Shown here piece after piece: positions 2,246 through 41,493 of a DNA stretch of 64,000 bases. The position numbers were made by a program, and so were the translations under genes. The stretch's first letter is position 1. Each line of letters starts with the position of its first letter. Source of the DNA: a phage. The notes beneath the pieces were generated by a model. It did no database searches. It saw only the letters and a list, made by a program, of their open reading frames with translations, and was not told the DNA's origin. Where the stretch lies: assembly GCA_037574385.1 (NCBI GenBank), contig GCA_037574385.1_4529.1; one strand, written 5' to 3'.

Positions 2246-3025
2246 ATGGCAGTAGTAGGAATACCTGGTTGGATTGGAACATCAGCAGTGGCTGAAACAG
2301 GTCAACGTTGGATGTCAGCAGCTTCTAGAGAATTACGTCTAGGGAACCCATCTTGGATGTCACAATTCGCTGGACGTTCAAGAGAAATTATTCACACTCT
2401 TGGAGCAGACCATAACTTTAATGGTCAATGGTTCCGTGACCGCTGTTTTGAAGCCGGTGGCGCTCCTATAGTGTTTAATATCACAGGCAACTTAGTATCA
2501 TATTCTAAAGACGTTCCTTTATTCTTCATGTATGGTGATACTCCTAACGAATATGTTACTTTGAATATTCATGGTGGTGTTCATATGTGGGGCCGAGGTG
2601 GTAATGGTAGCGTAAATGGAAGCCCAGGCACTAATGGCGGCGACGTAATCCAAAATGATATTGGTGGACGACTTCGCATTTGGAACTATGGCGTTATTGC
2701 ATCAGGTGGCGGTGGCGGGGGTGCAGTGTCGTTAAAGAATAGCTGGGATGCGTATGCTACAGCTGGTGGTGGCGGTGGCAGGCCATTTGGTCTTGGCGGC
2801 GGCGGTGTTAATTGGCCTGGTGGCAATGCTAGTTATGACGGTCCAGGTGGTGGCGGTAATACAAGTCAATTTGGTGGCGGCAATGGCGGTGATGCTGGGG
2901 GTGCTGGTGGTGACGGATGGGGCAGTCACTTATCTAGATCTGGGGGTGGTGCTCCTGGTAGAGCAGTATTCGGAAGTTCACCTTCATGGGGTGCTACAGG
3001 CACAATCTACGGCTCCTGGATTTAA
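2246..3025 (+). CDS. 38: tail fibre adhesin gp38 (T2-type receptor-recognising protein with glycine-rich motifs)
   Basis: 259 aa; conserved N-terminus MAVVG.PGWIG...QRWMS...[14 protein letters not shown]; C-terminal half has polyglycine runs (GGGGGG) separating short variable segments, as in T2/T6 gp38. Confidence 0.9.
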
Positions 3026-3043
3026 ACGATAATACCTCTCAAT

Positions 3044-3051
3044 TATAAATA
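3044..3051 (+). promoter_or_regulatory. late promoter TATAAATA upstream of t
   Basis: Exact TATAAATA ~20 nt upstream of the holin ATG; consensus of T4 gp55-dependent late promoters. Confidence 0.6.
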
Positions 3052-3070
3052 TTGATAAATGGGAGGTAAT

Positions 3071-3730
3071 ATGGCAGCACCAAAAGTATCATTTTCGCCT
3101 AGTGATATTTTATTTGGGTTGCTAGACCGCATTTTCAAAGATAACGCCTCTGGAAATATTCTTATTTCCAGAGTTGCTGTTGTAGTTCTTTTGTTCCTAA
3201 TGGCACTAATATGGTACAAAGGGAGTATTTTTATGGATTATTACGTGAGGTCGAAATATGATACTTACACAGAAGTAATTCAAAAAGAAAGAAATACACG
3301 ATTTGAATCTGCGGCTTTAGAACAACTACAAATAGTCCACGTCACATCAAGGGCGGATTTTAGTTCGGTGTATTCTTTCAGACCTAAAAATCTAAATTAT
3401 TTCGTCGACCTTATTGCGTATGAAGGTAAGTTACCTAGCACAGTAACTGAAAAATCTATGGGAGGATTTCCTGTCGATAAAACTACAGCAGAATATTCGG
3501 TCCATTTAAGTGGACTTCACTTTACTTCTAAAACAGATTTTGCTTTCTTACCTACCAAATCAAAAACTCCGGAACTGGCATATATGTATAGTTGTCCTTA
3601 CTTCAATTTGGATAACATATATGCTGGAACTGTTTCTATGTATTGGTATAAGGGGTCGGATGTGTTAAATGAAGAACGCTTGGCAGCAATATGCAACCAA
3701 GCAGCAAGGATATTAGGGCGGGCTAAATAA
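3071..3730 (+). CDS. t: holin T (lysis timing)
   Basis: Starts MAAPKVSFSPSDILFGLLDRIFKDNA, one TM segment, ends ...CNQAARILGRAK; high identity to T4 holin as I recall it. GGGAGG 5 nt upstream of ATG 3071 (track ORF begins at 3059). Confidence 0.9.
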   Translation: MAAPKVSFSPSDILFGLLDRIFKDNASGNILISRVAVVVLLFLMALIWYKGSIFMDYYVRSKYDTYTEVIQKERNTRFESAALEQLQIVHVTSRADFSSVYSFRPKNLNYFVDLIAYEGKLPSTVTEKSMGGFPVDKTTAEYSVHLSGLHFTSKTDFAFLPTKSKTPELAYMYSCPYFNLDNIYAGTVSMYWYKGSDVLNEERLAAICNQAARILGRAK

Positions 3731-4003
3731 TTAGTTGTTAGAATACATCGTCAAATGGCGATAAATATTTTCAAAACCTTCATTGAATTCACTAATCAGT
3801 GTTTTCTTTTCTTCGGCAGTTAAATTTGTAATTAGTTTTCTGAACGAATTCTGATTTAGCTGCCGACCATCTTTTTTAATTCCAATCTCATTCAAGAATC
3901 CGATGAAATTTGCTCGGTCTTCAACAATATCTTCCCTAGAGAATTTAATCAAAATAGAAGCAATAGTAATAATTTCACGTACGATTTCAATGTCTTTATT
4001 CAT
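3731..4003 (-). CDS. asiA: anti-sigma70 factor AsiA
   Basis: 90 aa, MNK.I..VREIIT.ASILIKFSREDIVE.RANFI.FLNEIG...NQNSFRK...EFNEGFE matches T4 AsiA. Confidence 0.9.
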   Translation of the reverse strand: MNKDIEIVREIITIASILIKFSREDIVEDRANFIGFLNEIGIKKDGRQLNQNSFRKLITNLTAEEKKTLISEFNEGFENIYRHLTMYSNN

Positions 4004-5067: not shown

Positions 5068-5528
5068 TAATAAAGGTCCTCTGAATAAAGTTCTTTCTCA
5101 CTTCCACCACGTTCAATACGTACCTGTCCAGCATACGTTGCAATAATCATTGCTTCTTCACGAGTCCAGTAATTAGAGTATTGGTCAATAAAGCCTTGGT
5201 CGTCGCCACAAACTTGTTGCGAGACTAATTGAGGACCAACTATATCAAGTACTTCAGCCATATCTTTAGAGTAATGACGAACTCCAGGAATAACCAGAGT
5301 TCCACCACTCTTCAATTTAAACCTATTAGCTGCACATACTATAACACGTTGAACTTTTTGGTCATTGTTCCAATAGCACGTTTGCCAACAGATTTCAGGA
5401 ACTTCATTCATTATATCATCAGCAGAATAATTATAACCGTAGGACTGGAATTTTTCTGCTAGACTTTCAGGAGTCTCACGAGACAAGGCTAAATCTAATA
5501 GCTCTAAGCGTTCTTTAAATGATTTCAT
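5067..5528 (-). CDS. hypothetical early protein (153 aa)
   Basis: ORF in operon orientation; stop/start coupling with neighbours. Confidence 0.5.
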
Positions 5529-6686: not shown

Positions 6687-8012
6687 TCAAAGTGCCTCCA
6701 AGTCTTTAGTGTACTCTGTCACAACATCGGTAGACTTCCAATACTCATTTTCTTCTTTCTTAGCTTTAGCTTCTTCTGCTAGTTTACGTGCTTCATCGGA
6801 AGTGATATGGAAGATGTTAAGACCTACCAGTTTATCAACATGTTCTTTATACATTTCGATTTGTGCTAGCTCTTCAGTCAAAGCTTTACGAGTCTTGCCC
6901 TGAATCACAATTTCACCACTGATAACTTTTTTGATGAAGTGTGCCTTAGCAAAAGCAAGTTTAAATGCTTTTTCAGATTCAAGGATTTTGTTGTCAATAC
7001 GTTTCTGAACGTAAGTCTTACGGACTTCAACAAAATCTTTGATTAAGTCTACTACATTATCGTAGACCGCTAATTTACCTTTTTCATTAATCACTGTGAT
7101 GTTTTGTGAACGACGTTCGATGAGACTAAAATCTTTCATGATTTTTTCATGACGTAGCTCTTCATCGTCTGGAAGCGAGTACTCTTTACGGAACTTCACC
7201 TTAAACCCAAATCCATGTTCACCACAATCATCTTCCCATGAGATTAGACCTTTATCTTCTAATGGGTCAAGAACCTTACTCACATACGTTTCACGGTCGA
7301 ATTTATATGGGATTTCAGTTATCTGCATTTGAGTACGAGATGTGAACTTATATGTTCCGTGAATCTCATAACGCCCATCAACTTCATGTACTTCACCACG
7401 GAATTCCGGGAATTCAACTTTTGGCTTAGTGACATTTTTACCTTGAAGAGCTTGTAATACAGCCTTTTTGACTGATTTAAAACTATGAGGCAGAATATTT
7501 GTTGCATAACCGGTTGCAATACCGGAGACACCATTCAAAAGAACTGTCGGAATAATAGGAAGATAGAATTTTGGTGGAATATGTTCTTTATCTTCATGAG
7601 TTGGAGCATATTCGGTATCTTTATAGACATTATAGAAATTTTTGCTTACACGAGCAAAAATATAACGAGATGCCGCAGCTTTTTGGACTGTTCTAGAACC
7701 AAAGTTGCCTTGGCCATCTAACAGTGGATAGTTGTTGTTCCATGTGTTAGCCATTAATGCACCTGCATCTTGTGCAGAAGATTCACCATGGTGATAACCT
7801 AAATCTGCAACACCACCCGCAATTGACGCAAGTTTATGAAATTTTTCTTTATTACCACGAGCCAAATCTAACGCACGATGGACCACAAAACGTTGAACCG
7901 GCTTAAATCCATCAATCATGTTTGGGATTGCACGGTTTTCAACGGTGTACATCGCATATGCTAAGGCTTCGTTATCAATAATACTTTTTAGATTACGAGA
8001 ATTCAATTGCAT
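6687..8012 (-). CDS. 52: DNA topoisomerase II medium subunit gp52 (GyrA-like)
   Basis: 441 aa with GyrA/ParC-like cleavage-core sequence; size and position match T4 gp52. Confidence 0.95.
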   Translation of the reverse strand: MQLNSRNLKSIIDNEALAYAMYTVENRAIPNMIDGFKPVQRFVVHRALDLARGNKEKFHKLASIAGGVADLGYHHGESSAQDAGALMANTWNNNYPLLDGQGNFGSRTVQKAAASRYIFARVSKNFYNVYKDTEYAPTHEDKEHIPPKFYLPIIPTVLLNGVSGIATGYATNILPHSFKSVKKAVLQALQGKNVTKPKVEFPEFRGEVHEVDGRYEIHGTYKFTSRTQMQITEIPYKFDRETYVSKVLDPLEDKGLISWEDDCGEHGFGFKVKFRKEYSLPDDEELRHEKIMKDFSLIERRSQNITVINEKGKLAVYDNVVDLIKDFVEVRKTYVQKRIDNKILESEKAFKLAFAKAHFIKKVISGEIVIQGKTRKALTEELAQIEMYKEHVDKLVGLNIFHITSDEARKLAEEAKAKKEENEYWKSTDVVTEYTKDLEAL

Positions 8013-11427: not shown

Positions 11428-13641
11428 TTATTTGGCCGCTTCCACGGCCTTCATGAATTTAACGATTTGAGCGACTTGTTCTTTAGAAAGAGTACCACGT
11501 CGTCCCATGTATTCTGACACAATATGATAATTGGTTTCGAATTCAATAACCATTTTATCATCATTATCGTAAGCATTATCTTTAAGCTTATCGAAAATTT
11601 TAGCACACAATTCTAACTTTTTATTCAGTTCTCTGTTAGTAGCACCTGAGAATCGATTCCATCCCCAACGATTATTTACCGTTGAGAGTTTTGCAAAATC
11701 TTTACTGATTTCTTTGTTTTTAGAGCTAAAATACTTACTAAGGAAGTTAAGCTCTTCGTTACGAGTAATATGATTCAAATAAGGCTGTGCTCTACGACTT
11801 GGTGATACATACTCATCATAATCCACTTTATCAATTAGCGTAATATAGTCATTAATTGATTTTTCGAACAAGCATTCTACTTCGCCAAGTTTACGAACTT
11901 TCTTAGCAATCTGTGGACGAACTACAGTGAACTCTTTAATACCTGACAAATCAGCAATACGGGTCAAGAAATTGGAGTCATAGTTCAACCAACCTTTATC
12001 TGCGTCAAGACATTCAGCATTAGAACGATTACGAACTATAGCATAACCTTGGATTTCATCTGCTTCACTTGCTGGAATAAAGAGGTCTTCTGATACCCAA
12101 ACATCGTTTTCATTCTTAAAGAATCGATGAGCACTTGGCGATTTAGGACGAGGCTCATTAGTCCGTTTCCTGACTTCAATCCATGGCTTAACGATTTGTA
12201 AAAGCTCTGAAGTCTTGTACATGTTAATGTTGTCGCCGTCAAAGATAACTTTAAGGCGTTCCAGAAGTTTCATTGCATCTTCGTCTGTAGGGTCAACGAA
12301 TAGTACGCTTTTACCAAAACCGCGTGGAACTTTACCGGTTAATTTAACCTCGTCTTTAGACATTTCAATTGAATTAAGAGCTCGCATTAATGGAACGCGT
12401 CCCTTAACGTCGTCAATAACAATTTCAACGTTTTTAATGTTAATGCCAATCAGGCTGTTAATTGAAATAGTTGATGATGAGCTACCACTTTCACGAATAC
12501 GACGAAGACGAGGGGATTCAACGATATCGTATACGACGCCAAGATTACACCACTCAGGCCCCATTTTAAAACGTTTATACAACTCAGAATAAGTTAGTTG
12601 TTCTTTAGAGTATTTCAGTGATTCAATATTAGACCCAGCCTTTTCCATGTATTTACGAGCGGTATAGCCAAGAGAATCAATTTCACGGAACACATGACGT
12701 GGGTATTTACAATCAATCCATTTCTTAGAATCTTCAGCGAACAATTTAGCATCGATTTCTGCAACGCGTTTATGGATATTTGCTACTGTACGTTTATCAA
12801 ACGACAATGCTTCACGAGACGGAGCTACATCTAGTTCACCCATAGGGAATTTAATATAAGCTGTAGTGCATCGTGTCATCATCCATGTTTGTTCTTTAAT
12901 AACACTTCCGATTGGATAAACAATACCACCATAAACAGCCATGATATTACCACGTTCACCCCGTGGAGCTTCCTTGGCCAAATATACATCGTCAAATTCT
13001 GGGAAGTATTTAATATCTTTAACACCACGAACTTCTGCTATATCACCTAAAGGACGCATAACATATGCAATTTCAGATGCGAACTTTTCAAAATCTTCTG
13101 GGTTAACCGGTACGACTACTTCTACACCCGTACGGTCATCAGGACCCATCTTATCTACAAAGGTTGGCTTAATTTGAGGACCCGTGTCATCTTGGTAGAT
13201 TACGTAACCACGAACTTCACCGTTGTGATAAGACGTAAGGTTAAACGTATCGGTATATGCTAGCGGAGCTTTAGAGCCGAGCCCGAATCCACCAATGAAA
13301 TCGTTGCTCGATGTTTTAGTTGAAGCAAAATATGAGTTATAGATTCCTGGCTCTTCGTCATTACCTCGAATAGTGAAATCACTCATACCAGGACCAAAGT
13401 CTCGAACTACAAAACGTGGGTCTAAACGACCTGGAGCCTGAACAATAAACTTATCAGTGCAACCGTTAAGAATTTGTCCATCAATACAGTTTGTGATTAA
13501 TTCACGTACACAAGCCAATTCTTTGTTTGTATAAAGGTCATTAGACAAAATCTTATAAACTTTGCTATTGCCTTGAATAGTGAATGCTGTACTCTTACCG
13601 CCTGAACCAATAATCGTTTCTTTAGCCGTTTCAATAATCAT
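11428..13641 (-). CDS. rIIA: rIIA protein
   Basis: 737 aa, N-terminal GHKL-ATPase-like region; size and position match T4 rIIA. Confidence 0.95.
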   Translation of the reverse strand: MIIETAKETIIGSGGKSTAFTIQGNSKVYKILSNDLYTNKELACVRELITNCIDGQILNGCTDKFIVQAPGRLDPRFVVRDFGPGMSDFTIRGNDEEPGIYNSYFASTKTSSNDFIGGFGLGSKAPLAYTDTFNLTSYHNGEVRGYVIYQDDTGPQIKPTFVDKMGPDDRTGVEVVVPVNPEDFEKFASEIAYVMRPLGDIAEVRGVKDIKYFPEFDDVYLAKEAPRGERGNIMAVYGGIVYPIGSVIKEQTWMMTRCTTAYIKFPMGELDVAPSREALSFDKRTVANIHKRVAEIDAKLFAEDSKKWIDCKYPRHVFREIDSLGYTARKYMEKAGSNIESLKYSKEQLTYSELYKRFKMGPEWCNLGVVYDIVESPRLRRIRESGSSSSTISINSLIGINIKNVEIVIDDVKGRVPLMRALNSIEMSKDEVKLTGKVPRGFGKSVLFVDPTDEDAMKLLERLKVIFDGDNINMYKTSELLQIVKPWIEVRKRTNEPRPKSPSAHRFFKNENDVWVSEDLFIPASEADEIQGYAIVRNRSNAECLDADKGWLNYDSNFLTRIADLSGIKEFTVVRPQIAKKVRKLGEVECLFEKSINDYITLIDKVDYDEYVSPSRRAQPYLNHITRNEELNFLSKYFSSKNKEISKDFAKLSTVNNRWGWNRFSGATNRELNKKLELCAKIFDKLKDNAYDNDDKMVIEFETNYHIVSEYMGRRGTLSKEQVAQIVKFMKAVEAAK

Positions 13642-13653
13642 ATTTTTCTCTCA

Positions 13654-13854
13654 TCACAAGTTACGTTTAAAAATTTCTGCTACTTCAAGAAGTTCTTCTT
13701 TAGTAGCTGTATCGGTTTGTATTTTATATCGAATTTCTTTAAAGCGTTCTTTAAAGGACTCTGCTGACTCGATATCAAAAAATCTTTGGATAAGCCGGAA
13801 TTCCCGGAGCACTGCTTTATCAAAAAGTTCCAAGTCCACGTTATATGTTCTCAT
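13654..13854 (-). CDS. rIIA.1-like small protein (66 aa)
   Basis: Short ORF immediately upstream of rIIA as in T4. Confidence 0.6.
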   Translation of the reverse strand: MRTYNVDLELFDKAVLREFRLIQRFFDIESAESFKERFKEIRYKIQTDTATKEELLEVAEIFKRNL

Positions 13855-13946: not shown

Positions 13947-15047
13947 TTACGCTGTGAAGATTTTATCCCACATTGCAACAACTGCATCTCGGTTATACTT
14001 CTTCCATACTGCTTCAGCACGTTTAACTCGAGCTTCGTATGTGTCAGTGAATTCTAATACAGCTTTTGTGTAAAGCGCAACTACTTCTTTCTTAGGAGTA
14101 GAGGAATCAATTTCTACACGCACAGTATCTGGGTCATATTCGAATGTCGCATGCGGATAATCCTTAAAAACTAACTGAATTACAGGGACACCTTTAGAAA
14201 TGGCTTCAATAGAACTATTCTCTACCGTACCTGTGTCAGGACACGTATTAATAAGTGCTTTAGCTGTTTTAAGACGTTCCATAATTTCACTGTGTGGAGC
14301 ATCAATAATAACAGGATACTTAGCCGGTGGTGCCCATTTACTAGGACAGTATCCTGCGCCATTTTCGCCTAGTGCTTTAATCGCTTCAAGAGCAACATCA
14401 GTACGACGCATTTTAGTGTCATAACGTTGTGCACTAATAATCAGATCAGTCGCCGGAAGAACTTCAGGTTTCTCATTCAAACAAATAACCGGATAATCTT
14501 CGGCTTCAAACAACGGATTTGCTCGCCAATAATCATAATCAATTTTGTCAGTCAGACCTGAAGTCATATAACAATATTTGCGTTCAAATTCACGGAAGGC
14601 TTTAGTAGGAGCATAACTCTTACCACCGTTCTTATGAATTTGAATAGTCTGGTCCCAAATTTGAACAATGCCACGAGATACCGGCTCAAACGGTGTTGCC
14701 ATAAAATTCTTATGAACTTTAGAGAGACCTGCGTCTTTAATTGCCTGAACGGTTAGTTTAGTCGGTTCCATTGTAACAACGAAATCGTACTCATTAATGC
14801 CGGCTAGTTCAACAATCTTACGAGCCATAGTATAACTCATACCTAGACTGAATTTAGTCAGATGACCAACAGGATGATGATTAACCTTCCAATCACCAAA
14901 CGTGTCATTATCAAAGCCGATATAATCAATATCAGCACCGATGGACACAAGATATTTCAACACATTTAAATGTACTGCTTCAAGACCACCTTGTACACGT
15001 TCTGGGTTAAACGGGACTGCGCGAGATGGGATAAACATAACTTTCAT
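13947..15047 (-). CDS. GT-B fold glycosyltransferase (candidate DNA sugar transferase)
   Basis: 366 aa; N-terminal Rossmann segment and C-terminal ENSSIEAISKGVPVIQ resembling the GT4 E-x7-E donor-binding motif; occupies the rIIA-39 gap. Confidence 0.55.
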   Translation of the reverse strand: MKVMFIPSRAVPFNPERVQGGLEAVHLNVLKYLVSIGADIDYIGFDNDTFGDWKVNHHPVGHLTKFSLGMSYTMARKIVELAGINEYDFVVTMEPTKLTVQAIKDAGLSKVHKNFMATPFEPVSRGIVQIWDQTIQIHKNGGKSYAPTKAFREFERKYCYMTSGLTDKIDYDYWRANPLFEAEDYPVICLNEKPEVLPATDLIISAQRYDTKMRRTDVALEAIKALGENGAGYCPSKWAPPAKYPVIIDAPHSEIMERLKTAKALINTCPDTGTVENSSIEAISKGVPVIQLVFKDYPHATFEYDPDTVRVEIDSSTPKKEVVALYTKAVLEFTDTYEARVKRAEAVWKKYNRDAVVAMWDKIFTA

Positions 15048-15073: not shown

Positions 15074-15091
15074 AAGCTCCCGAAGGAGCTT
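15074..15091 (-). terminator. UUCG-tetraloop hairpin / terminator after gene 39
   Basis: Minus-strand RNA AAGCUCC-UUCG-GGAGCUU followed by U-rich tract. Confidence 0.5.
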
Positions 15092-16907
15092 AGGACATCC
15101 ATTCTTTACGAAGTTCTGAATCATCACCCAACAACATTTCAAAGAGTTCTTTCCAATTTTCAGGAAGTTTAACTACGTCGTACACAGGGTTTTGAATCAT
15201 TTCACGATATTCTGACTTTTCAAGGGAGCCCAATCCCTTGATGTATCGAATACTATGCTTAGGCAGTGTATCTTTAGCTTCTTCATACTCAGCTACAGTA
15301 TAAAACCATTTTTGAGTTTTGCCGATTTGTGCAATAATTACAGGTGTTTTAACAAAGCGAATACGTCCTTGTTCAAACAATTCAGGCCAATTACTAAAGA
15401 AAGCAAGCAAAGCCGGATAGATACTTCCAAGACCGTCATGATCGGCATCGGTCATAATTGCAATATTACGATAGTTCGTATTCTCTGCCTTTTCACCAAG
15501 AATAAGACCTGTGATAGCACAGATATCAAAGAGCTCTTTGTTCTTCATCATATCGGCATATGACATACCCCAGCTATTCATCACCTTACCACGTAATGGG
15601 AATCCGCCGTGTAGTTCACGGTCACGAACATCAATGAGATATCCAATTGCCGAATCACCTTCTGTTAAAAACAATGTCGTATCTGCATCTTTACCGCATT
15701 GGTTAGCTTTAATATGCTTATGAACCTTAGCTTTAGTTGCCTTTTTAGCTGCTTTAGTTTCTGCAGCCTTTTCTGCTGCCAATTTACGAGCTAATGCTGC
15801 TTCAACAATAGGCATAATCAAGGCTTCGTTTTTAAGAAGTGCCTGAGCAATTTTCTTAGCATCTAATTGGATATGATTACGAATATCACCATACGTTGAC
15901 GTTAAACGTTCTTTAGTCTGAGAATCAAAACGCATGTTGCTCATGTCTCTAATAAACATCAACATTGTGAGACATTCTTTAACACGAGCTTTAGTGACTT
16001 CAATACCCTTATATTTCTTTTTAATACCCGGCAAAAGATGTTCGCAAATATCATCCATTACACATTCAACATGATGACCACCATTTTTAGTATGGATGTT
16101 ATTCACATAAGTTAAATGACGGAAGCCATCCGGTGATGTTGTGAATGCTATAGAGACTTTATCATTTTCTTGAATGATGTTATCTTCACCAAATTGTTTA
16201 GCAAATCGTTTAAAATTGCCATCAACCTTTTTACCATTAAATGTGAACTTGATATCAGGATAAACGACTGCCAATGTTTGAAGTCGGTCTAAAGTAATAT
16301 CTAAATAAATTTGAGATAAATTATGCTCTTCAAATGAAGTGAAATCAGGAGTGAAGATTACTTTAGTGCCTTTACCTTTAGATTTCTTAGAAGACCATGA
16401 TTTGTTTTCCATTCCGTTTGAACAGTTAACAGTGATTTCATTTTCGCCATCTGACGTGATGCCTGTAAACAACGTAGAGAAGATATTAGTTAAACTACTC
16501 CCGACGCCGTTCATACCACCTGTCTTGCGTTCAGAGTCGTCACCAAAGTTACCACCGGCCTTTGGAATAGTCCAGGCTGCTACAGGCCCAGGAATTTGTT
16601 CACCCGTTTGGTCGGTAACTAAACCTTGAGGAATACCACGTCCGTTATCTTCCACTGAAACTTGATTATTTTTAATTTGCACATCAATTTTATTTGCAAA
16701 CTTAAATGATGTACGAATAGCTTCATCAACCGAGTTGTCAATAATCTCATCGATTAATTTAACCAGACCAGGAACATATTCAACTTGTTGATATTTACCA
16801 AACAAAAAACGCTCATGTGCTTCTTTAGCTGAAGAACCAATATACATACCACTACGTTTCTTAATATGTTCTACATCTGACAGTACCTTAATTTCATTTT
16901 TAATCAT
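15090..16907 (-). CDS. 39: DNA topoisomerase II large subunit (GyrB-like), gp39 and gp60 as one uninterrupted ORF
   Basis: 605 aa: GHKL ATPase N-domain plus Toprim region; length equals T4 gp39 + gp60. Confidence 0.95.
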   Translation of the reverse strand: MIKNEIKVLSDVEHIKKRSGMYIGSSAKEAHERFLFGKYQQVEYVPGLVKLIDEIIDNSVDEAIRTSFKFANKIDVQIKNNQVSVEDNGRGIPQGLVTDQTGEQIPGPVAAWTIPKAGGNFGDDSERKTGGMNGVGSSLTNIFSTLFTGITSDGENEITVNCSNGMENKSWSSKKSKGKGTKVIFTPDFTSFEEHNLSQIYLDITLDRLQTLAVVYPDIKFTFNGKKVDGNFKRFAKQFGEDNIIQENDKVSIAFTTSPDGFRHLTYVNNIHTKNGGHHVECVMDDICEHLLPGIKKKYKGIEVTKARVKECLTMLMFIRDMSNMRFDSQTKERLTSTYGDIRNHIQLDAKKIAQALLKNEALIMPIVEAALARKLAAEKAAETKAAKKATKAKVHKHIKANQCGKDADTTLFLTEGDSAIGYLIDVRDRELHGGFPLRGKVMNSWGMSYADMMKNKELFDICAITGLILGEKAENTNYRNIAIMTDADHDGLGSIYPALLAFFSNWPELFEQGRIRFVKTPVIIAQIGKTQKWFYTVAEYEEAKDTLPKHSIRYIKGLGSLEKSEYREMIQNPVYDVVKLPENWKELFEMLLGDDSELRKEWMS

Positions 16908-16956
16908 GTTGTCTCCTCGTTATGAAGGTATTCTATCATCCGAAATCTAAAGCAAA

Positions 16957-16972
16957 AAGGGCCGAAGCCCTT
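16957..16972 (-). terminator. UUCG-tetraloop hairpin at 3' end of upstream gene
   Basis: Minus-strand RNA AAGGGC-UUCG-GCCCUU then U-rich. Confidence 0.45.
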
Positions 16973-17396
16973 ATTTAAATTTAATTTTCTGAAGTGCATC
17001 AATTGCAGCCAAACGCCCTTGTTCACTTTTAACTGTAATGACCACATCGCCTGATACGATCACCGAACCATCAACAAATTCTATAGAGTCTTTTTTGAAA
17101 TCGACAGCTGTATCTGGTTCCGGAACTTCTTCAAAGAATTTAAATTCTGCACCATAAATCAGAATATCACCTTGCATACTATGAATAGTTCGGCCATAAT
17201 CGCCTACGGCTTCTACAGCAATCATTGAAACACCGTAACCAATCATCTCTTCCACAATAAAATCTTTAGACAATAAAGTAGTATGCAGATTAGTATTAAG
17301 ACGTTTACCAGTCGTATTAAGAATTCTCAAGAAATTATCTTCCTGTCCTTTGATAATACGGTATTTCTTGCCAATTTCAAAACCTTTAAAAGCCAT
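16971..17396 (-). CDS. hypothetical early protein (141 aa)
   Basis: ORF in operon orientation. Confidence 0.55.
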   Translation of the reverse strand: MAFKGFEIGKKYRIIKGQEDNFLRILNTTGKRLNTNLHTTLLSKDFIVEEMIGYGVSMIAVEAVGDYGRTIHSMQGDILIYGAEFKFFEEVPEPDTAVDFKKDSIEFVDGSVIVSGDVVITVKSEQGRLAAIDALQKIKFK

Positions 17397-17398
17397 AA

Positions 17399-17578
17399 TT
17401 ATCCCTTCTTAAGTAAGTCGTAAAAACCACCGTTCACATGTTTAGGAGCAGAAACCCGACGAGTAGACAGACGATGACATTCAGGGCAAACATCGTTTTC
17501 TCGTTCAGAAATCCTTTTAATTTTTTCATATTCATGACCACAATCTTCAGATTGACATTTATAGTCGTATAACGGCAT
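17399..17578 (-). CDS. FmdB-like zinc-ribbon protein (59 aa, below ORF-track threshold)
   Basis: Hand translation MPLYDYKCQSEDCGHEYEKIKRISERENDVCPECHRLSTRRVSAPKHVNGGFYDLLKKG; MP.Y.Y.C..CGH.FE...CP.C pattern typical of FmdB zinc ribbons; stop abuts next gene start. Confidence 0.5.
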   Translation of the reverse strand: MPLYDYKCQSEDCGHEYEKIKRISERENDVCPECHRLSTRRVSAPKHVNGGFYDLLKKG

Positions 17579-17580
17579 TA

Positions 17581-18009
17581 TTATTCCTTAAAATGTGTTT
17601 TCAACATTTGATACAAAGACCATGCCTGGTCGTTATTTTCGATAGTAATCGTCATCACCGGAAATTCGGTCAATTCATCAAGTTCTTCAGAGTCTTGCTC
17701 TTCAGACGCTTGATATGGATTTCCAACTTCATCAAAAAACTCTGCTTCACTAGTAGAGAGCCAGATAAAGTTTTCATCAAGAATATCACCACCAGTTGCG
17801 TATCCAACCATGCCAGTAGATGTCACAATTTTAGTAGGTCGACCAAGATGGTCAACATCTAATACTTTAAATGGTTCCATGCCAAGACGTCGTGCATAAA
17901 TCCCATTATCAGTGTGGTTTTTAATAAACTCTTCTTGGACACGTTTATCTTTAAATTGGTACCATGAGTTAACGCGGAATTTATTAGCCATTAGTAAGTT
18001 TCCTTCCAA
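17581..18009 (-). CDS. hypothetical early protein (142 aa)
   Basis: ORF in operon orientation. Confidence 0.5.
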
Positions 18010-18859: not shown

Positions 18860-19279
18860 TTATGCGAAAGCAGCCGGGCTATATTTTTTAATTTGGAATT
18901 CAGGAACTACCATGAACTGACCAGCGAAAACGATGTTATAAAGCTTAACACCATCTTCTACCCAACGGTCGCTAATAAATCCGGCGATTTGCTTAGTTTT
19001 CCATGGCGTTCCATCGGTTGCCGCAGCAATAGTGAATTCGTGGTCTTTTTCAACAGAAACTGATCTGCATAGTCCCCATTTGAACGCTTTTTCTTCTGGT
19101 TCAATGAATTGGCTTGAGACGTAGCCAATGTTGCCATCAGCATCACGAACTTTAACTTGATGTGGACTAAAGAGTCCACAACTTACAGAAAGAACTTCAA
19201 CCAACTTCCCAGCAACTTTAGAGCGAGAAGCAACAGATACATATACGTAATCACCAATAGAGAGATTTGCAATATTCAT
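18860..19279 (-). CDS. hypothetical protein, member of a 3-gene tandem paralog family
   Basis: C-terminal region shares ...GFISD.WVEDG.KLYNIVF.G.F.VV... with the next two genes. Confidence 0.6.
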   Translation of the reverse strand: MNIANLSIGDYVYVSVASRSKVAGKLVEVLSVSCGLFSPHQVKVRDADGNIGYVSSQFIEPEEKAFKWGLCRSVSVEKDHEFTIAAATDGTPWKTKQIAGFISDRWVEDGVKLYNIVFAGQFMVVPEFQIKKYSPAAFA

Positions 19280-19288
19280 AATAATTCC

Positions 19289-19774
19289 TTAAGCTTTACG
19301 AGGAGACACATAACGAGTGATTTCGGATTCTTTAACAACTCTGAAGTCACCTAAGAATACGATATTGTATAACTTTTCACCATCTTCAACCCATTGGTCA
19401 CTAATGAAGCCACACATAGTATCAGTTTTGCTTGGATAACCGTATTCATCGATGAAGTCAAATTCTTTATCAGTCTGGAATTCAACGCCTTTGCAAAGGG
19501 CCCATTTGAACTGTACATTATGCTCTGTGGATTCAACTTTTTCTCTTGAAGCAAAAGCACTACTCACAGGCGTTTCCAAGAACTTTGCACGAACATAAGC
19601 AAATTTGGTTTCCTGTGTCCCAAAACTAGGAATAATACGAACCTTTACCTCAGAATCTTCATCTTTAACGCCTTCTTTAAGTTGAATACTTACAACTTCG
19701 ACCAATTTTCCTGCGGCTTTAGAACGAGATTTGTTAGATACGCGAACGATTTCACCAATAATACCAAGATTCAT
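19289..19774 (-). CDS. hypothetical protein, tandem paralog 2 (start moved to MNLGIIGEIV)
   Basis: Track N-terminus (MLYIQGWMEYNEF) is the translated promoter repeat; internal Met is the likely start. Shares the C-terminal motif. Confidence 0.6.
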   Translation of the reverse strand: MNLGIIGEIVRVSNKSRSKAAGKLVEVVSIQLKEGVKDEDSEVKVRIIPSFGTQETKFAYVRAKFLETPVSSAFASREKVESTEHNVQFKWALCKGVEFQTDKEFDFIDEYGYPSKTDTMCGFISDQWVEDGEKLYNIVFLGDFRVVKESEITRYVSPRKA

Positions 19775-19804
19775 AATTTCTCTCTCTTTGTTTAAATTGA
19801 ATTC

Positions 19805-19833
19805 ATTATACTCCATCCATCCTTGGATGTACA
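19805..19833 (-). promoter_or_regulatory. early promoter-hairpin repeat, copy with compensatory stem variant
   Basis: Minus strand TGTACA-[CATCC AAGGAT GGATG]-GAG-TATAAT; stem CATCC/GGATG where the other copies have CAACC/GGTTG. Confidence 0.55.
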
Positions 19834-19836
19834 ACA

Positions 19837-20331
19837 TTAATTAAGGATATTAACCACAGCACTACGTGGAACTACACTAAAATCACCTGCATGAACAACG
19901 TTCAGAAGTTCAACACCGTCTTCAATCCACTGGTCAGTTACCCATCCATTTACTGGACCTGCGAAAGGACGTCGAATTGAAACATATTTACACAGCAAAT
20001 CAGTAGGCTCAATAGGCTTAATCAGAGTACCGTACATACAAGCGATATCCATATCAATACAGATGTCTTTAACGGGTTCTACTTCTTCAATCAACAGTTC
20101 AAAGTCTGTGCTTGGAAGGGCGGTAGTGGAAATTGTACCATATGAATTTTTAATTTCTAAGAATAACCAAGGGCCTTCAGCTTGTTTGATGAAGTTAACA
20201 ATAGTGAAACTATTGCCTTGAGTGGCACCTAAAATTTCACAAAACTTTTCGTAAGCTCGCACTGAAGCACTGTACCAGTTGATTTGTTTTTCGTCTTTCA
20301 GGATGTAAGTAGCCGTAGTATTGATATTCAT
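19837..20331 (-). CDS. hypothetical protein, tandem paralog 3 (164 aa); positional candidate for MotB-like protein
   Basis: Shares C-terminal ...GWVTDQWIEDGVELLNVVHAGDFSVV... motif; T4 has motB in this neighbourhood; not verified. Confidence 0.55.
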   Translation of the reverse strand: MNINTTATYILKDEKQINWYSASVRAYEKFCEILGATQGNSFTIVNFIKQAEGPWLFLEIKNSYGTISTTALPSTDFELLIEEVEPVKDICIDMDIACMYGTLIKPIEPTDLLCKYVSIRRPFAGPVNGWVTDQWIEDGVELLNVVHAGDFSVVPRSAVVNILN

Positions 20332-34943: not shown

Positions 34944-35492
34944 TTAACGAGCCCATTTGATAATTTCTGTAATCAAATTATTACGTTCGCTTGCATTAAA
35001 TCCTATAACTTTGTTAGCACCATCATGATTAAGTAATTGATACGTTTGGATTTTGTTATGAATTGCAAACTCTTCAAAATGTGAAATGACTGTATTAAAA
35101 CCGAATGAAGACAAAGTAATAAGGTCGTCTTCAAAACTTTCAGTCATTTCGTTACGTGTTAAAATAATTGTGAACACATCATGGTTTTGGCAAAGACGAA
35201 TATAATCCTGTTCATAAACGTCAAGAACCGAGTCCGCATCTTGTCGAATACGTCCATAAACCCAGTTACTAATATATCCACGGTCTAATAGATAAATCTT
35301 AGTAGGGTCTAAATAATTCAACATCGTTTCGAAACAGCCAACTTCATTTCGAGACTTAACATCGAAACGCCCATCAACTGTTCGTTTAGGGAAATCAATC
35401 TTTACATATCTTTCACTAATTTCCATTATGTCATTAATGAAAGTTGTTTTACCAGCATTATCCGGTCCGTCTACTAAAATAATTTTAGCCAT
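34944..35492 (-). CDS. P-loop kinase (NMP-kinase/gluconokinase-like fold), substrate unknown
   Basis: 182 aa; Walker A LVDGPDNAGKTT at residues 5-16 and a later hhhhD Walker B-like segment. Confidence 0.55.
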   Translation of the reverse strand: MAKIILVDGPDNAGKTTFINDIMEISERYVKIDFPKRTVDGRFDVKSRNEVGCFETMLNYLDPTKIYLLDRGYISNWVYGRIRQDADSVLDVYEQDYIRLCQNHDVFTIILTRNEMTESFEDDLITLSSFGFNTVISHFEEFAIHNKIQTYQLLNHDGANKVIGFNASERNNLITEIIKWAR

Positions 35493-35493
35493 T

Positions 35494-36393
35494 TTATTCC
35501 TCGATTACGACATCTTCGTATTTAGGTATATTATACGGTGAAGAAATTAAAGCATTAAAGTAGATGAACTCACCAAGACCTGGATGGAATACTTCTTCAG
35601 GATTTTCGAAATATTGAATCTTCGGACGTCCTTTAAGAATTTGATAGTACTCAGTTTTAGTTGGTTTAAAAATTCGAATCAGCGCTTCTTCAGGGTACTT
35701 ATTTCTGTCGAAGCTAATATTTGGATCTGTTATATAAAGCGGTTGGCCTAATTGAATTGCACATTCAACCACTTGTTCAAAACGATAGCACGGGTCACTA
35801 ATTCGAAATGGATGAAAAATACCATCTAGATGAATAGGAGCCAAATCACCTACAAGACGCTGCATGATGGAAGGACGTATAACTTTCTGCGTTACGATAA
35901 TCTTATTACCATCTGCACCTGCGTTAACCAGCACTTCCTTTTGACGTTCATTCAACACAGTAGTTTGAAGTGAACGATTAACCGACAACATATCGGTTTT
36001 TAAGAATTCATCAATATAAAAGCGTGGTTTATTAGGGTCTGTAGTGATATTGAAATTGAATTCCACATCAAAAGCGCCATCATATCCAGTGATATCTGTG
36101 ATTAGAAAATCACAATCATAATAAGCAATTAATGAATCAACCACAAATTCATTTTCAGACCAGAAATATTTACGAGTGTTATACGCGTTATCTTTATACC
36201 ATAATGGAACAAACTTAAATTCCGGGAAAAGACGTTCACATTCTTTAATATCAGATGCATTACGTGGATATGTAATCACATCACCCGGATTAGCACGGTG
36301 CAAATGAAGTTGGAAGTTGCCATCCTTAAGGATAGCATACTGTCCAGTTTCATAAGACCGCATACTCAAGATTGGTACGCGGAAAATAGCCAT
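35494..36393 (-). CDS. hypothetical protein (299 aa) at the position of T4 beta-gt; candidate transferase
   Basis: No motif recognised; placed between uvsX and the hydroxymethylase where T4 encodes beta-glucosyltransferase. Confidence 0.5.
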   Translation of the reverse strand: MAIFRVPILSMRSYETGQYAILKDGNFQLHLHRANPGDVITYPRNASDIKECERLFPEFKFVPLWYKDNAYNTRKYFWSENEFVVDSLIAYYDCDFLITDITGYDGAFDVEFNFNITTDPNKPRFYIDEFLKTDMLSVNRSLQTTVLNERQKEVLVNAGADGNKIIVTQKVIRPSIMQRLVGDLAPIHLDGIFHPFRISDPCYRFEQVVECAIQLGQPLYITDPNISFDRNKYPEEALIRIFKPTKTEYYQILKGRPKIQYFENPEEVFHPGLGEFIYFNALISSPYNIPKYEDVVIEE

Positions 36394-37109
36394 TAGTCAA
36401 GGAATCCTTTAACATAATCAAAATCACGTTCAAACACATGGGCACTTACCATGGTATGAGTATAATCACCAACTTCTACACCGCATTCGTTAGCGATATA
36501 ATGAAGTAATTTTCCTTGGAGATAAAAATCCAACTGCATAACAACAGCACAGTTCTGAGAACGCATATGGCAGTGCGTATAAAGCTTACCATCACGAATA
36601 TAATAAGTAACTGAGTCAGTACATGGATATTCAAGCGTTTCGTCTGAATCAAGCAAAGCCTGATCAGAACTTTCTAGAATTTGGAACACAACTCTTCGGG
36701 AGTTAGGCTTCTCTTTAAGTTCTTTTAGAAGAGCTGGTAATTGGGCCGCAATGCGAGGACCATAGAAAGTGTTGAAGTTCGCCGGCAAAACATCTGATTT
36801 TGGTTTAGAAATAAATTTAGCGACATTAGGATATGCCTTAAACGCTTCTTCTGCGTTGGTACCACCAGAAATCATAAACTTCCAGAAGTCTTCGGCATAT
36901 TCATAAGAGATGCGGTTAATACGTGGGTCGGTCATTTTGAATGATGATGGAGTGTCAACAACTACTGTCATAGACCCAATTTCATTACAACGTCCAATAC
37001 GAGAATCAGTTACGAATTCCGGGTTTTCTAAAATTTCACGATTGACTGCTTTAAATGCGGTTTGAAAATCTGCGGCTTTGATATATTTCATTGTGTTATG
37101 TTTTCCCAT
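36393..37109 (-). CDS. thymidylate-synthase-family pyrimidine nucleotide hydroxymethylase (divergent gp42-like)
   Basis: 238 aa; SRRVVFQILES, EYPCTDSVTYYIRDGKL and VSAHVFERDF align with TS / dCMP-hydroxymethylase motifs (catalytic Cys in PCT). Confidence 0.6.
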   Translation of the reverse strand: MGKHNTMKYIKAADFQTAFKAVNREILENPEFVTDSRIGRCNEIGSMTVVVDTPSSFKMTDPRINRISYEYAEDFWKFMISGGTNAEEAFKAYPNVAKFISKPKSDVLPANFNTFYGPRIAAQLPALLKELKEKPNSRRVVFQILESSDQALLDSDETLEYPCTDSVTYYIRDGKLYTHCHMRSQNCAVVMQLDFYLQGKLLHYIANECGVEVGDYTHTMVSAHVFERDFDYVKGFLD

Positions 37110-37151
37110 GTTTACCTCAATACAATTTATTATATACTCAATTCGTAAAGC

Positions 37152-37391
37152 TTATTTGAATTTCTTGACAATGTTGATATAACGTAAAGCTTCAGCATCG
37201 ATACTTCCAAGGACACTATGAAGAAATGCATCAGCGTAGTATTCCAATTGAATAGGTTCTTTAATCACTTTAGCCGCTTTGGTTTCAAACAGGCCCATCA
37301 GGGCCTTTTTAAGAATTTGTTCGTTGCTGTTAATTTTCGTAGTCAAAATCTCTTCATTAAGTTGGTGGTTAAAAGTTTTTCTAGAAATCAT
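37152..37391 (-). CDS. hypothetical protein (79 aa)
   Basis: ORF within the cassette. Confidence 0.45.
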   Translation of the reverse strand: MISRKTFNHQLNEEILTTKINSNEQILKKALMGLFETKAAKVIKEPIQLEYYADAFLHSVLGSIDAEALRYINIVKKFK

Positions 37392-38563
37392 TCCGGGTAC
37401 CTCAAAGCGTCATCAGAGTTAGTTATATCAATAATAGATATAGAGTTTTCTGCTAACCCATTTTTAGATAATTGACGTTTATAATATCTTTCACAATATG
37501 TACACGTTGACCCACAGATTTCATTAGCACAATCAAAATCAGGATGTCTGAACCACCTTTTTTCTAAAAAGCCATCTAACAAAGAGGTTTCAATATTTAC
37601 TGTATGTGAAAACTCAGTCTCATTTTCAAGAGTGAAAATAGTCTCTAAAGGCTTCCACAGTTCTAACAAATTACCTTCAAACTTTTCAGAAGCGTATGCT
37701 TCAAGAACTTTCAAAATGTAGTCTGTGCTACCTGTACGTCCTGAAACTTTGAATTGAGTGATACCAATATCATTATAAAGTTTCAAATCTTGAGGACGAA
37801 CAAAACGAGTTCTCAACCAGTTAAATGGGTCTGTATCACGAGCTTTAATACAGTGCTGCATTGGATATCCATTTAAGGATTTAGCATCATCAGCTGTAAC
37901 ATCAGTACTATGGAAAATATAGCAAGAGTCACGATAGCTACAATGTGTTGTATACCCTTTACCAGCATTAGAACAGAACTCATTTACAAGAACTTCAAAT
38001 ATTATATTGTTCTTATTGCAAAACTCTGCTGCACGCTTCAGGAAAGAAACTGAACGGTTCTTATGAATTCCACAGCAGACCTTTTTGATATTATATTGGT
38101 CATGCAAGTATTTGATTTGAGTTACGGCATCGACATGTAGAATTGTTGAAACTTCAATCTCAATATCTTTATTGACTTCACGAACAATTTCCATAACAAC
38201 AGGGTTAGCGATAGTAATACGCCATACGCCTATTGACCAAAGATACTGAACATAATCCTGAATAGCTTTCTTCTTCCACTCAACTAGTTCTCTTTTTGAA
38301 CCAGGATTTATCGTGTTGAGTGTATAGTTAAAGCAAATACCTAATTCGTTACAACGTTTAACGTAGTCTTCTAACATCTTTTTGTCAACGTCAGGAAGCC
38401 TAAAATCAGGTCTGGCTGCTACAAAAGCCATTTCTCTTGTAGAGCCATATACTTCGTTTATCAAGCTATTAGGATAGGTTTTATTGAGCTCTACGATTTT
38501 ATCAAGAAGAGCTAAATCAAAATTCGTTCCGATTTTAAAAGTATTCATTTTTTTGCATCTCAC
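37388..38563 (-). CDS. Cys-rich hypothetical protein (391 aa), possibly metal/Fe-S binding
   Basis: Several conserved-looking Cys; C-terminal C-x4-C-x3-C-x2-C (CANEICGSTCTYC). No family assignable by eye. Confidence 0.5.
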   Translation of the reverse strand: MRCKKMNTFKIGTNFDLALLDKIVELNKTYPNSLINEVYGSTREMAFVAARPDFRLPDVDKKMLEDYVKRCNELGICFNYTLNTINPGSKRELVEWKKKAIQDYVQYLWSIGVWRITIANPVVMEIVREVNKDIEIEVSTILHVDAVTQIKYLHDQYNIKKVCCGIHKNRSVSFLKRAAEFCNKNNIIFEVLVNEFCSNAGKGYTTHCSYRDSCYIFHSTDVTADDAKSLNGYPMQHCIKARDTDPFNWLRTRFVRPQDLKLYNDIGITQFKVSGRTGSTDYILKVLEAYASEKFEGNLLELWKPLETIFTLENETEFSHTVNIETSLLDGFLEKRWFRHPDFDCANEICGSTCTYCERYYKRQLSKNGLAENSISIIDITNSDDALRYPE

Positions 38564-38604
38564 GTTAATTGATGCGATGGTTTTTGCAGGTCTTACTTAA
38601 ATTA

Positions 38605-39006
38605 TTATAGATTCGGTTTATATGATTTAAATGTTTCGAATTCGCCTTTATTCATAAGAGCTTTGAATTCGTCAGGACGCATAGCTTTGTCGTCGATAAT
38701 CCAATCATATACTGGTTTATGTGTTAGCAAATTATGGTACTTCAAGCCAATGTTTGCCAAGTTCTGAATCAGACTTGGGAGAATGTCAATTGCTATACGT
38801 CCAGGACCTACTGACTTCATACCACGAGCAGTGTAAAGCGTTATGGTATGCCCTGCATCATACAGGGCATTAATGGCAGACACCATTTCGACGTCTGGTT
38901 TGAAGTTCACGTAATCGCGATTGTTATTCCATTCTGTGATGCAATCATCGACATCAAAACAAAGATTAAGCATGTTTTCTACACGGTGCATTAGATTTGT
39001 TCCCAT
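38605..39006 (-). CDS. small HAD-superfamily phosphatase
   Basis: 133 aa; motif I FDVDDCIT near N-terminus; later T/S and K/D motifs consistent with a capless HAD phosphatase. Confidence 0.55.
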   Translation of the reverse strand: MGTNLMHRVENMLNLCFDVDDCITEWNNNRDYVNFKPDVEMVSAINALYDAGHTITLYTARGMKSVGPGRIAIDILPSLIQNLANIGLKYHNLLTHKPVYDWIIDDKAMRPDEFKALMNKGEFETFKSYKPNL

Positions 39007-40676
39007 TGATGAGTGATATCGCCACCGATTGGACGATAAGAAACACCAGTTTCTTTATCAGTTAGTACCCATTTACCAGGATTTTTTGTAATCAGAGTAG
39101 CCGTTACAGGTTCTGCTACGTCATAACTAATAGAGCCGTCTTGAAGTACACGGCCCATGTTACGTAATTGCTTAGTTAGAAGTTCCATACCTTTATAATA
39201 TGCGGCTACCGCTTTAAGTGGATTATTCTTGAAATAACCACCTAATGCAATCCAGATAATTGCCACTGCCAAATGATGATACTCGTTAAACGAACTCATC
39301 TTTCCATATTTGTAAACTAATGGATTGATGTTAATAGTCACATTACAAGTTGTTTCATCAATAATAAACTGGCCCCAGGTCGGATTAGCGTTGAATTCAT
39401 CATAACCTGAAACAGCATAAAGCACTTTAGCTTCATCATACAATTTTGGCCCGTAAATCTTGGTTTCACCAAAATATCCACGAGGGTCGATAAACTTGAC
39501 TTCGCCGTTATCAGTAATCATAGTATTACTGAAGTTCGGGTCACCGTGAATAACAGAGTACTGTCCCTGAGAACGGTTATGATAACGAATAAGGTGTTCT
39601 AAAGCTTGTTTCAGCATTGGCTTCAGACGTCCAATCTTAGTGTAGTTCACGTGTGTGATTTTACCAAATGAATCAATCAATGGCTGAATGCTTTCACAAC
39701 GATCAATAACTTTCGTATAGAACTCTTTAGTGAAATCACGACGAACAGTTTCAGGACTTACAAAATAAATGTCTGTGTTAAATTTCAGTGCATCTAAAAT
39801 TGCATCAATAATTTGTGGACGAGCAAGACTTGATTTGGATTTAATATATTCAAATGCTGGCTTACCTTTAATGCGTTCCATTTCAAAGTTATTTTCATTA
39901 ACAGAAACTAACTGAGGAACTGAATCTGATTTCACTTTCAAATACCATGAAATCTCATCTTTTTGAAGAGCTCGACCTTGTTCAGTTAATGCGAATTTAG
40001 TTACAGTTTCTTCACCAATTTCAACCGCATTAAAACTACGATTAAGTTCACGAACTTCATGAGCTTTTTCAAGTTTAGGCATATCACCAAGGTCGATGAT
40101 ATTCATAAGCTCTGATTTATTGAATGCGCCGCTGTAAAGGAATTCTACAAAATCACGTCCTTTGCAGTATTCGTGAATTTCCTCATCAGTAGAACCCATG
40201 TAGAATTCCCAGTCTTTGAACTGATAAATTCCTACAACATTACCGCCTGTTGCACCTACATTAGTGATATTTTCACCATCGAAATTATATCGACATTCAT
40301 CACCTTTAACATAGATTGCGTTAACATTCCAAGACCATGAACCAAAATCAGGAATAATATCACACCAGTTAACAACTACGTTATGGCCGTCTAAATCTTT
40401 GTGTAATTTAGCAAGAGCATAAGCAGAACCATACGCTTCATCAACTGTACGAATAGTCACATTGAACCCTTCTTGCTCACAATAAGCTCGAACAGTTTCA
40501 GCAAATTTTGAATGAACTACTACAATAATTTCATCTGCGCCAAGGTCAGAATAAATTGTATACAAATTGCTCAGAATAGTGTCTTGTTTATAGTTCACAA
40601 GAACTTTTGGAATATGGTGAGTAATTGGATATAAACGAGTTGCCAATCCAGCACCAAGAATAACAGCTTTTTTCAT
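38991..40676 (-). CDS. bifunctional sugar-1-phosphate nucleotidyltransferase / APH-type anomeric sugar kinase
   Basis: 561 aa; N-terminal ILGAGLATRLYP (G-x-G-x-R nucleotidyltransferase signature); C-terminal HGDPNFSNTMI...KFIDPRG matching the APH/choline-kinase catalytic loop. Confidence 0.65.
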   Translation of the reverse strand: MKKAVILGAGLATRLYPITHHIPKVLVNYKQDTILSNLYTIYSDLGADEIIVVVHSKFAETVRAYCEQEGFNVTIRTVDEAYGSAYALAKLHKDLDGHNVVVNWCDIIPDFGSWSWNVNAIYVKGDECRYNFDGENITNVGATGGNVVGIYQFKDWEFYMGSTDEEIHEYCKGRDFVEFLYSGAFNKSELMNIIDLGDMPKLEKAHEVRELNRSFNAVEIGEETVTKFALTEQGRALQKDEISWYLKVKSDSVPQLVSVNENNFEMERIKGKPAFEYIKSKSSLARPQIIDAILDALKFNTDIYFVSPETVRRDFTKEFYTKVIDRCESIQPLIDSFGKITHVNYTKIGRLKPMLKQALEHLIRYHNRSQGQYSVIHGDPNFSNTMITDNGEVKFIDPRGYFGETKIYGPKLYDEAKVLYAVSGYDEFNANPTWGQFIIDETTCNVTININPLVYKYGKMSSFNEYHHLAVAIIWIALGGYFKNNPLKAVAAYYKGMELLTKQLRNMGRVLQDGSISYDVAEPVTATLITKNPGKWVLTDKETGVSYRPIGGDITHQWEQI

Positions 40677-40713
40677 GTTGAAGTCCTCATTGGTAAGTAG
40701 GTGTATTGTACAC

Positions 40714-40860
40714 TATTCTAGTTAAAGCATTCATACTTTGCCTGTAGACCAATCATAATCCATCCAATTACAAGTGTTGGAATCATTACTGGAGCCGTTA
40801 AGCTCCAGTAGATAGTCATGACAAGCATCAATAGTAAAAGTCCTATTGTTATTGCTTTCA
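40714..40860 (-). CDS. possible small membrane protein (~48 aa, below threshold); positional candidate for Imm-like protein
   Basis: Hand translation MKAITIGLLLLMLVMTIYWSLTAPVMIPTLVIGWIMIGLQAKYECFN; ATG overlaps the upstream stop (ATGA). Confidence 0.35.
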
Positions 40861-41493
40861 TTGTTCGCCTCGTAACATGGCACCTAGTGCACCGCCAGGG
40901 TGGAACTTAAGGAAATCATTAGAGGTAAATCCGCGTTCAGACGAAAGGTTGATAGCGAACGTATCGATAAGCGCTAACAACAATGTAGTGGACATAGTCG
41001 GAGCTAAAGAGTTCTCGTCAACTTCTACCGCGATACCGGTACAGAATGTATAATCAAAAAGAGCTTCGTATTCTTGTGGAATGTCAGGGTTACAATGTAA
41101 CAGAATCTGTTTAACCTGAGGACGAATCATACGAAGATGTTTAGCAACACCTATCATTTCTTCAGTCTTACCAGAACGACTGATGTGAACTAATACATCA
41201 TTAGGTGCAATGAATCCTGCATCACCGTGAGAATAATGCCCAGTGTTCAAATACATGCTAGGAATACCTAGTGAAGCAAAAGTCTCGGAAGCTTTAGTTG
41301 CGATATTAGCGTTCTTACCAACACCTGTAATAATTACACGACTTTCATAATTACTCAGTCCTGGGCGTCGAAGAGTTTCTAGAATAGCATTATAACGAGC
41401 AGGGTTTTGACTAATTACTTTGGCCATAGCGGCCAAAGAAGAAGCTTGTTTTATGATTGCGTCAATAGCGATAGTGATTGGTGTAGTTTTCAT
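40858..41493 (-). CDS. SIS-domain sugar-phosphate isomerase, D-arabinose-5-phosphate isomerase (KdsD/GutQ)-like
   Basis: 211 aa; ITGVGKNANIATKASETFASLGIPS matches the SIS phosphosugar-binding motif; single SIS domain without CBS domains. Confidence 0.65.
   Translation of the reverse strand: MKTTPITIAIDAIIKQASSLAAMAKVISQNPARYNAILETLRRPGLSNYESRVIITGVGKNANIATKASETFASLGIPSMYLNTGHYSHGDAGFIAPNDVLVHISRSGKTEEMIGVAKHLRMIRPQVKQILLHCNPDIPQEYEALFDYTFCTGIAVEVDENSLAPTMSTTLLLALIDTFAINLSSERGFTSNDFLKFHPGGALGAMLRGEQ

Follow-up and report, generated by a model that had tools for sequence, protein, structure and literature searches.

An unsplit gene 39 for the GyrB-like topoisomerase subunit of a Mosigvirus genome and its comparison with the T4 gene 39/60 arrangement

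Split and unsplit forms of the large topoisomerase subunit

The topoisomerases of phages T2 and T6 consist of two subunits; among type IIA topoisomerases, only that of T4 has three (PMC11461880). ATP-dependent strand passage has been shown biochemically for both the T6 and the T4 enzyme, and it has been reported that the T-even enzyme relaxes DNA but does not supercoil it (PMC11461880). In T4, the GyrB-like subunit is split into genes 39 and 60, with a 50-nt translational bypass; a tail of 43 residues on gp39, a cassette with 60.1 and the HNH homing-endonuclease gene mobA, and a leader of 30 residues on gp60 lie at the split point. The gene has been described as ancestrally single and as split by a MobA homing-endonuclease element which carries the bypass, and every clade with the insert also has parental unsplit alleles (bioRxiv 10.1101/2022.08.31.505936).

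The stretch of phage DNA analysed here (64,000 nucleotides, referred to as the window) comes from a Mosigvirus of the RB69 group and contains the large subunit gene in one piece. The initial annotation of the window had implied that this arrangement is unusual, which is not borne out by our survey. Searching with the window protein by tblastn finds homologues in 2205 phage records, and in 2005 of these the match extends over 80% or more of the protein. In a 60-row sample drawn over the whole tblastn ranking and spanning phages of Escherichia, Klebsiella, Acinetobacter, Aeromonas, Vibrio, Rhizobium and Campylobacter as well as Salmonella Vi1-like and jumbo phages, the match is a single piece in every row except T4, which gives three pieces. 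The T4 cassette DNA is present in only 43 of 50,697 phage records, all of them T4-like phages with 97–100% identity to it. These two counts, together with the literature, make the lack of a split the rule and not an oddity: an unsplit gene 39 is the ancestral form and by far the most frequent one, and the T4 split is a rare exception. The unsplit gene is also already known: it has been documented, well over 100 nearly identical genomes have it annotated, and the structure of a close homologue is solved. It is therefore of little weight as a discovery, and its main use is as a clean parental allele against which the T4 MobA/bypass cassette can be studied.

Reading frame and domains of gene 39

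Gene 39 occupies positions 15090–16907 on the minus strand. As first noted from the ORF listing, it is one uninterrupted frame of 605 codons, which starts with ATG and whose only stop is the terminal one. The protein matches PHROG 543 (DNA topoisomerase II large subunit) over residues 1–605 with an E-value of 8e-287, and its Pfam domains follow each other in the canonical GyrB order, namely HATPase_c (residues 47–190), DNA_gyraseB (249–385), Toprim (411–519) and TOPRIM_C (520–604). The GHKL ATPase domain (16338–16769, minus strand; HATPase_c E=3e-11) carries the N-box EIIDNSVDE at residue 54, DNGRG at 87 and GGMNGVG at 130. The transducer domain (15753–16163, minus strand; DNA_gyraseB E=2.7e-14) contains the QTK loop at residue 330 with its lysine present. 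The TOPRIM domain with its C-terminal associated domain (residues 411–604; 15096–15677, minus strand) has the motifs EGDSA at residue 416, PLRGK at 437 and DADHDG at 487, so that both the catalytic glutamate (in EGDSA) and the DxDxD metal-binding motif are retained. The Pfam scores of this part lie under the curated cut-offs (17.5 against 23.1 for Toprim and 27.5 against 29 for TOPRIM_C), as is typical for divergent phage TOPRIM domains. These low scores are outweighed by the motifs and by the full-length match to the solved cryo-EM structure of unsplit T6 gp39 (PDB 8YLU, 1161.9 bits over residues 1–605).

Further PDB matches are human Topo II alpha (E=2e-61), ParE (E=7e-48) and GyrB (E=2e-37). 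The order of GHKL, transducer and TOPRIM is common to the window protein, bacterial GyrB and ParE, and the N-terminal half of eukaryotic Topo II. The window protein differs from these in being a phage enzyme and in having a shorter C-terminus of the TOPRIM part. The GyrA-like partner of the same topoisomerase, gene 52 (441 aa), is found at 6687–8012 on the minus strand, where gp52 of phage ATK48 aligns by tblastn at 8012–6690 with 99.3% identity over 441 aa. With GHKL, transducer and TOPRIM domains and an A-type partner all present, the product of gene 39 is a B-type subunit of a type IIA topoisomerase, of the class to which GyrB, ParE and T-even gp39 belong.

From this we infer the quaternary structure and enzymatic activity of the window gp39. 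Going by the homologous T6 enzyme, whose structure is solved, two chains each of gp39 and gp52 would assemble into an A2B2 enzyme whose GHKL dimer would bind ATP. The acidic residues of the TOPRIM domain (E416 and D487/D489/D491) together with the tyrosine of gp52 would then cleave the gate DNA duplex, through which a second duplex would be passed.

The T6, T2 and RB32 proteins (the unsplit gp39, named 60plus39 in RB32) are single polypeptides like that of the window, with ~82% identity to it, and the RB32 protein is likewise 605 aa long. Many Mosigvirus genomes are far closer, and the 3.5-kb segment spanning gene 39 is 98.5% identical to, for example, vB_EcoM_WFbE185, ATK48, mar005P1, Shf125875 and APCEc01. 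At least 80% of this segment is held by 151 records. At the protein level, the window gp39 shares 99.8% identity with the ATK48 product annotated as DNA topoisomerase II large subunit (ANZ51291). The orthologue in the RB69 reference, gp39 (NP_861694), is 96% identical in amino acids and departs from both the window and T4 in residues ~15–48 only (record NC_004928). In the window, the N-terminal stretch is T4-like (EHIKKRSGMYIGS) and agrees with T4, unlike the RB69 reference. Sequencing errors in the 2003 RB69 record have probably garbled the N-terminal ATPase strap, and the window gene can serve as the correct reference sequence for Mosigvirus gp39, since the RB69 record seems to be faulty at the N-terminus. 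Alignment of window positions 16760–16870 (codons ~14–48 of gene 39) with NC_004928 positions 5340–5445 reveals clustered indels of 1–2 nt in the RB69 record. True divergence at residues 15–48 was considered and is made improbable by these indels and by the agreement between the window and T4.

Comparison with the T4 split and bypass

For the comparison with T4, gp60 of the reference was translated after taking out the annotated 50-nt gap. By BLASTP, residues 1–474 of the window protein align with residues 1–473 of T4 gp39 (79% identity), and residues 473–605 align with residues 27–159 of T4 gp60 (87% identity). Both alignments run collinearly through one frame with no internal stop. The alignment that the initial annotation had proposed thus agrees with its statement that the ATPase and Toprim parts are fused without a gap or a change of frame, as does the Pfam order. 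The window gene and T4 gp39 plus gp60 represent homologous enzymes with shared catalytic motifs, but the window lacks the split itself, the ~70-aa insert in TOPRIM, mobA and 60.1, the take-off site, its hairpin, the matched landing codon and the nascent-peptide signal.

A three-way alignment of the window, RB32 and T4 places the equivalent of the T4 39/60 split at 15477–15488 (minus strand), within LGEKA-ENT-NYRN. The residues at this point are E-N-T in the window and E-N-L in RB32, against 73 extra residues in T4. The equivalent of the T4 bypass is located at 15426–15437 (minus strand), where the codons GAC GGT CTT GGA encode D491, G492, L493 and G494. This position aligns with the T4 take-off codon for Gly46, which is a GGA with UAG as the next codon, inside a stem-loop. 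The sequence GGATAG is absent from the whole of gene 39, and the site has neither a GGA-UAG take-off nor an in-frame stop. Folding of 30-nt segments gives a minimum free energy of -3.4 kcal/mol at the bypass-equivalent site, compared with a mean of -2.7 ± 2.2 for the gene and -11.3 for the T4 take-off hairpin, and by this measure the site has neither a hairpin nor an unusual local structure. Hidden recoding within gene 39 was considered and rejected, since the frame is free of internal stops and of GGATAG and the bypass-equivalent site forms no strong hairpin.

A displaced copy of the mobA/60.1/bypass cassette elsewhere in the window was also considered. The T4 cassette (T4 positions 2901–3909, comprising the 3' extension of gene 39, mobA, 60.1 and the 5' leader of gene 60) gives no match to the whole 64-kb window by blastn (word size 7) or by tblastx. 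The 50-nt gap sequence of T4 has no counterpart in the window either, as the best ungapped match is 32 of 50. A displaced cassette was thus not found by these searches. The split, with its interrupted reading frame and extensions, the mobA/60.1 cassette and the set of take-off, gap and landing elements, which together define the T4-type gene 39/60, are all absent from the window, in line with the earlier description of T4 as split and bypassed and of the window as neither. A weak terminator-like hairpin with three G-C pairs does occur inside gene 39 at 15507–15524 (minus strand), a short way 5' of the T4 split point. It falls within a conserved coding segment (ICAITGL) and is probably there by chance.

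The region at 15090–16907 is almost certainly an ordinary, never-interrupted Mosigvirus gene 39 for the GyrB-like subunit of the phage type IIA topoisomerase. We regard it as a never-invaded allele because it bears no scar and equals the parental-type RB32 gene in length. According to this reading, the three-subunit form of T4 arose when a MobA homing-endonuclease cassette with the 50-nt bypass was inserted in the TOPRIM-coding part, and the lineage of the window never received that cassette.

A secondary re-fusion ('hit and run'), in which the lineage once had the MobA/bypass cassette, then lost it and regained a single reading frame, is very improbable for the window gene. Re-fused genes are known in some clades of Aeromonas and Campylobacter phages, but they retain C- and N-terminal extensions derived from the insert (bioRxiv 10.1101/2022.08.31.505936), and gene 39 of the window has none. 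The gene has only ENT at the site, a length of the parental RB32 type and no cassette remnant by tblastx, and re-fusion is rejected on the missing scar and the equal length. Even less credible is the suggestion that the open frame results from misassembly or belongs to an inactive pseudogene still open by chance, for which no support was found, though the garbled N-terminal segment of RB69 shows that older records of this region do contain errors; against it, about 145 independent phage records hold the 3.5-kb region at 95–99% nucleotide identity, the protein is 99–99.8% identical across many isolates with all catalytic motifs intact, and its N-terminal segment agrees with T4 in the part where the RB69 reference departs. 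A never-interrupted gene remains the reading that we adopt.

Why a never-invaded allele has stayed free of the cassette is a separate matter. Around the insertion site of the cassette, the nucleotide identity between the window and T4 is only ~69%; the protein sequences agree at 22 of 24 residues, while most wobble positions are changed. Because of this low identity, and because arabinosylated DNA has been proposed to block recombination with T4-type phages, the Mosigvirus gene 39 might be seen as an 'empty site' allele, kept free of the cassette as an unusable homing target, with a DNA-modification barrier shielding the locus from MobA. We consider this unlikely. If it were true, the barrier, whose proposed second transferase gene adjoins gene 39, would guard the locus against a selfish element known as an invader of six other myovirus clades.

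Neighbouring genes and signals

Downstream of gene 39 lie a glycosyltransferase gene (366 aa, 13947–15047), rIIA.1 (66 aa, 13654–13854; Pfam T4_RIIA1 E=2.1e-30) and rIIA (737 aa, 11428–13641; assigned by synteny and by annotation in RB69 and ATK48), all on the minus strand. The synteny of rIIA, rIIA.1, ORF003c and a single gene 39 is common to the window, RB69 and ATK48. The 366-aa protein is about 98% identical to PDB entry 9IQZ (E=2.6e-248), deposited under the title 'Glycosyltransferase subfamily 4-like N-terminal domain-containing protein', and likewise about 98% identical to 9IR0. Its identity to RB69 ORF003c is 99.2%, the conserved GT-B Glu-281 is kept, and Pfam gives no match to it. On these matches it is assigned as a GT-B/GT4-like glycosyltransferase of the RB69 ORF003c family. 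ORF003c has been proposed to be the arabinosyltransferase of RB69 DNA (PMC6024577) and later, as gp3, to add a second arabinose to glycosylated 5-hydroxycytosine (PMC13326640). The window protein is accordingly a putative DNA arabinosyltransferase. Thomas et al. 2018 reported Arg-207 of ORF003c as a contact of the beta-phosphate. RB69 ORF003c, like the window protein, has Gln at position 207 and the Arg one residue further on, at 208. Gly-20 and Glu-281 are as published, and the mismatch looks like a numbering offset only.

The glycosyltransferase had been described as filling the slot between gene 39 and rIIA instead of gene 60. It is indeed present there, but the replacement is positional only, as the coding content of gene 60 forms the 3' end of the gene 39 frame, and the slot also holds rIIA.1, which that description omitted. 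In the T2-type phage RB32 the unsplit gene adjoins rIIA.1 across a gap of 54 bp with nothing between them, unlike in the window, where the 1.1-kb glycosyltransferase gene separates the two. This arrangement in RB32 indicates that the glycosyltransferase gene is an independent insertion of the Mosigvirus lineage and not a replacement of gene 60.

A ribosome-binding site, GAGGAG, is located at 16913–16918 (minus strand), 5 nt 5' of the gene 39 ATG. Further upstream, a candidate T4-type middle promoter was recognized by eye at 16930–16956 (minus strand). It consists of a MotA-box-like element TTTGCTTTA, which we take to match the T4 middle-promoter consensus, a 12-nt spacer and the -10 element TAGAAT. 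Gene 39 may therefore be expressed from a middle promoter. A scan for sigma-70 promoters found 10 sites against 12.6 expected in shuffled sequence, that is, no excess. The terminator scan marks a terminator-like hairpin AAGGGCTTCGGCCCTT with a T-run at the end of the upstream gene (16957–16972, minus strand) and a terminator-like UUCG hairpin AAGCTCCTTCGGGAGCTT which overlaps the stop codon of gene 39 (15074–15091, minus strand). Both are annotated as terminators in ATK48.

The window also carries a full cytosine-arabinosylation cluster of the RB69 type, equivalent to RB69p045–p055, at 34944–41493 (minus strand) with 97.1% nucleotide identity to RB69. The ORF003c-type gene for the proposed second arabinosyltransferase (13947–15047) lies ~20 kb from these other genes of the pathway. 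Within the cluster, RB69p046 and p047 correspond to one frame of 299 aa (35494–36393), and p052 and p053 to one frame of 561 aa (38991–40676). These fused frames agree with published statements that the splits in the RB69 reference are sequencing errors.

Two frames upstream of gene 39 (16971–17396 and 17581–18009, minus strand; 141 and 142 aa) match PHROG 622 and, more weakly, goF families. From these matches they look like paralogous goF-like genes that flank a small gene for an FmdB-like zinc-ribbon protein (17399–17578). Still further upstream, three consecutive frames at 18860–20331 (minus strand; 139, 182 and 164 aa) share the C-terminal motif GFISD[RQ]WVEDG.KLYN[IV]VF.G.F.VV and correspond to the series of MotB-like paralogues annotated in RB69 and ATK48.
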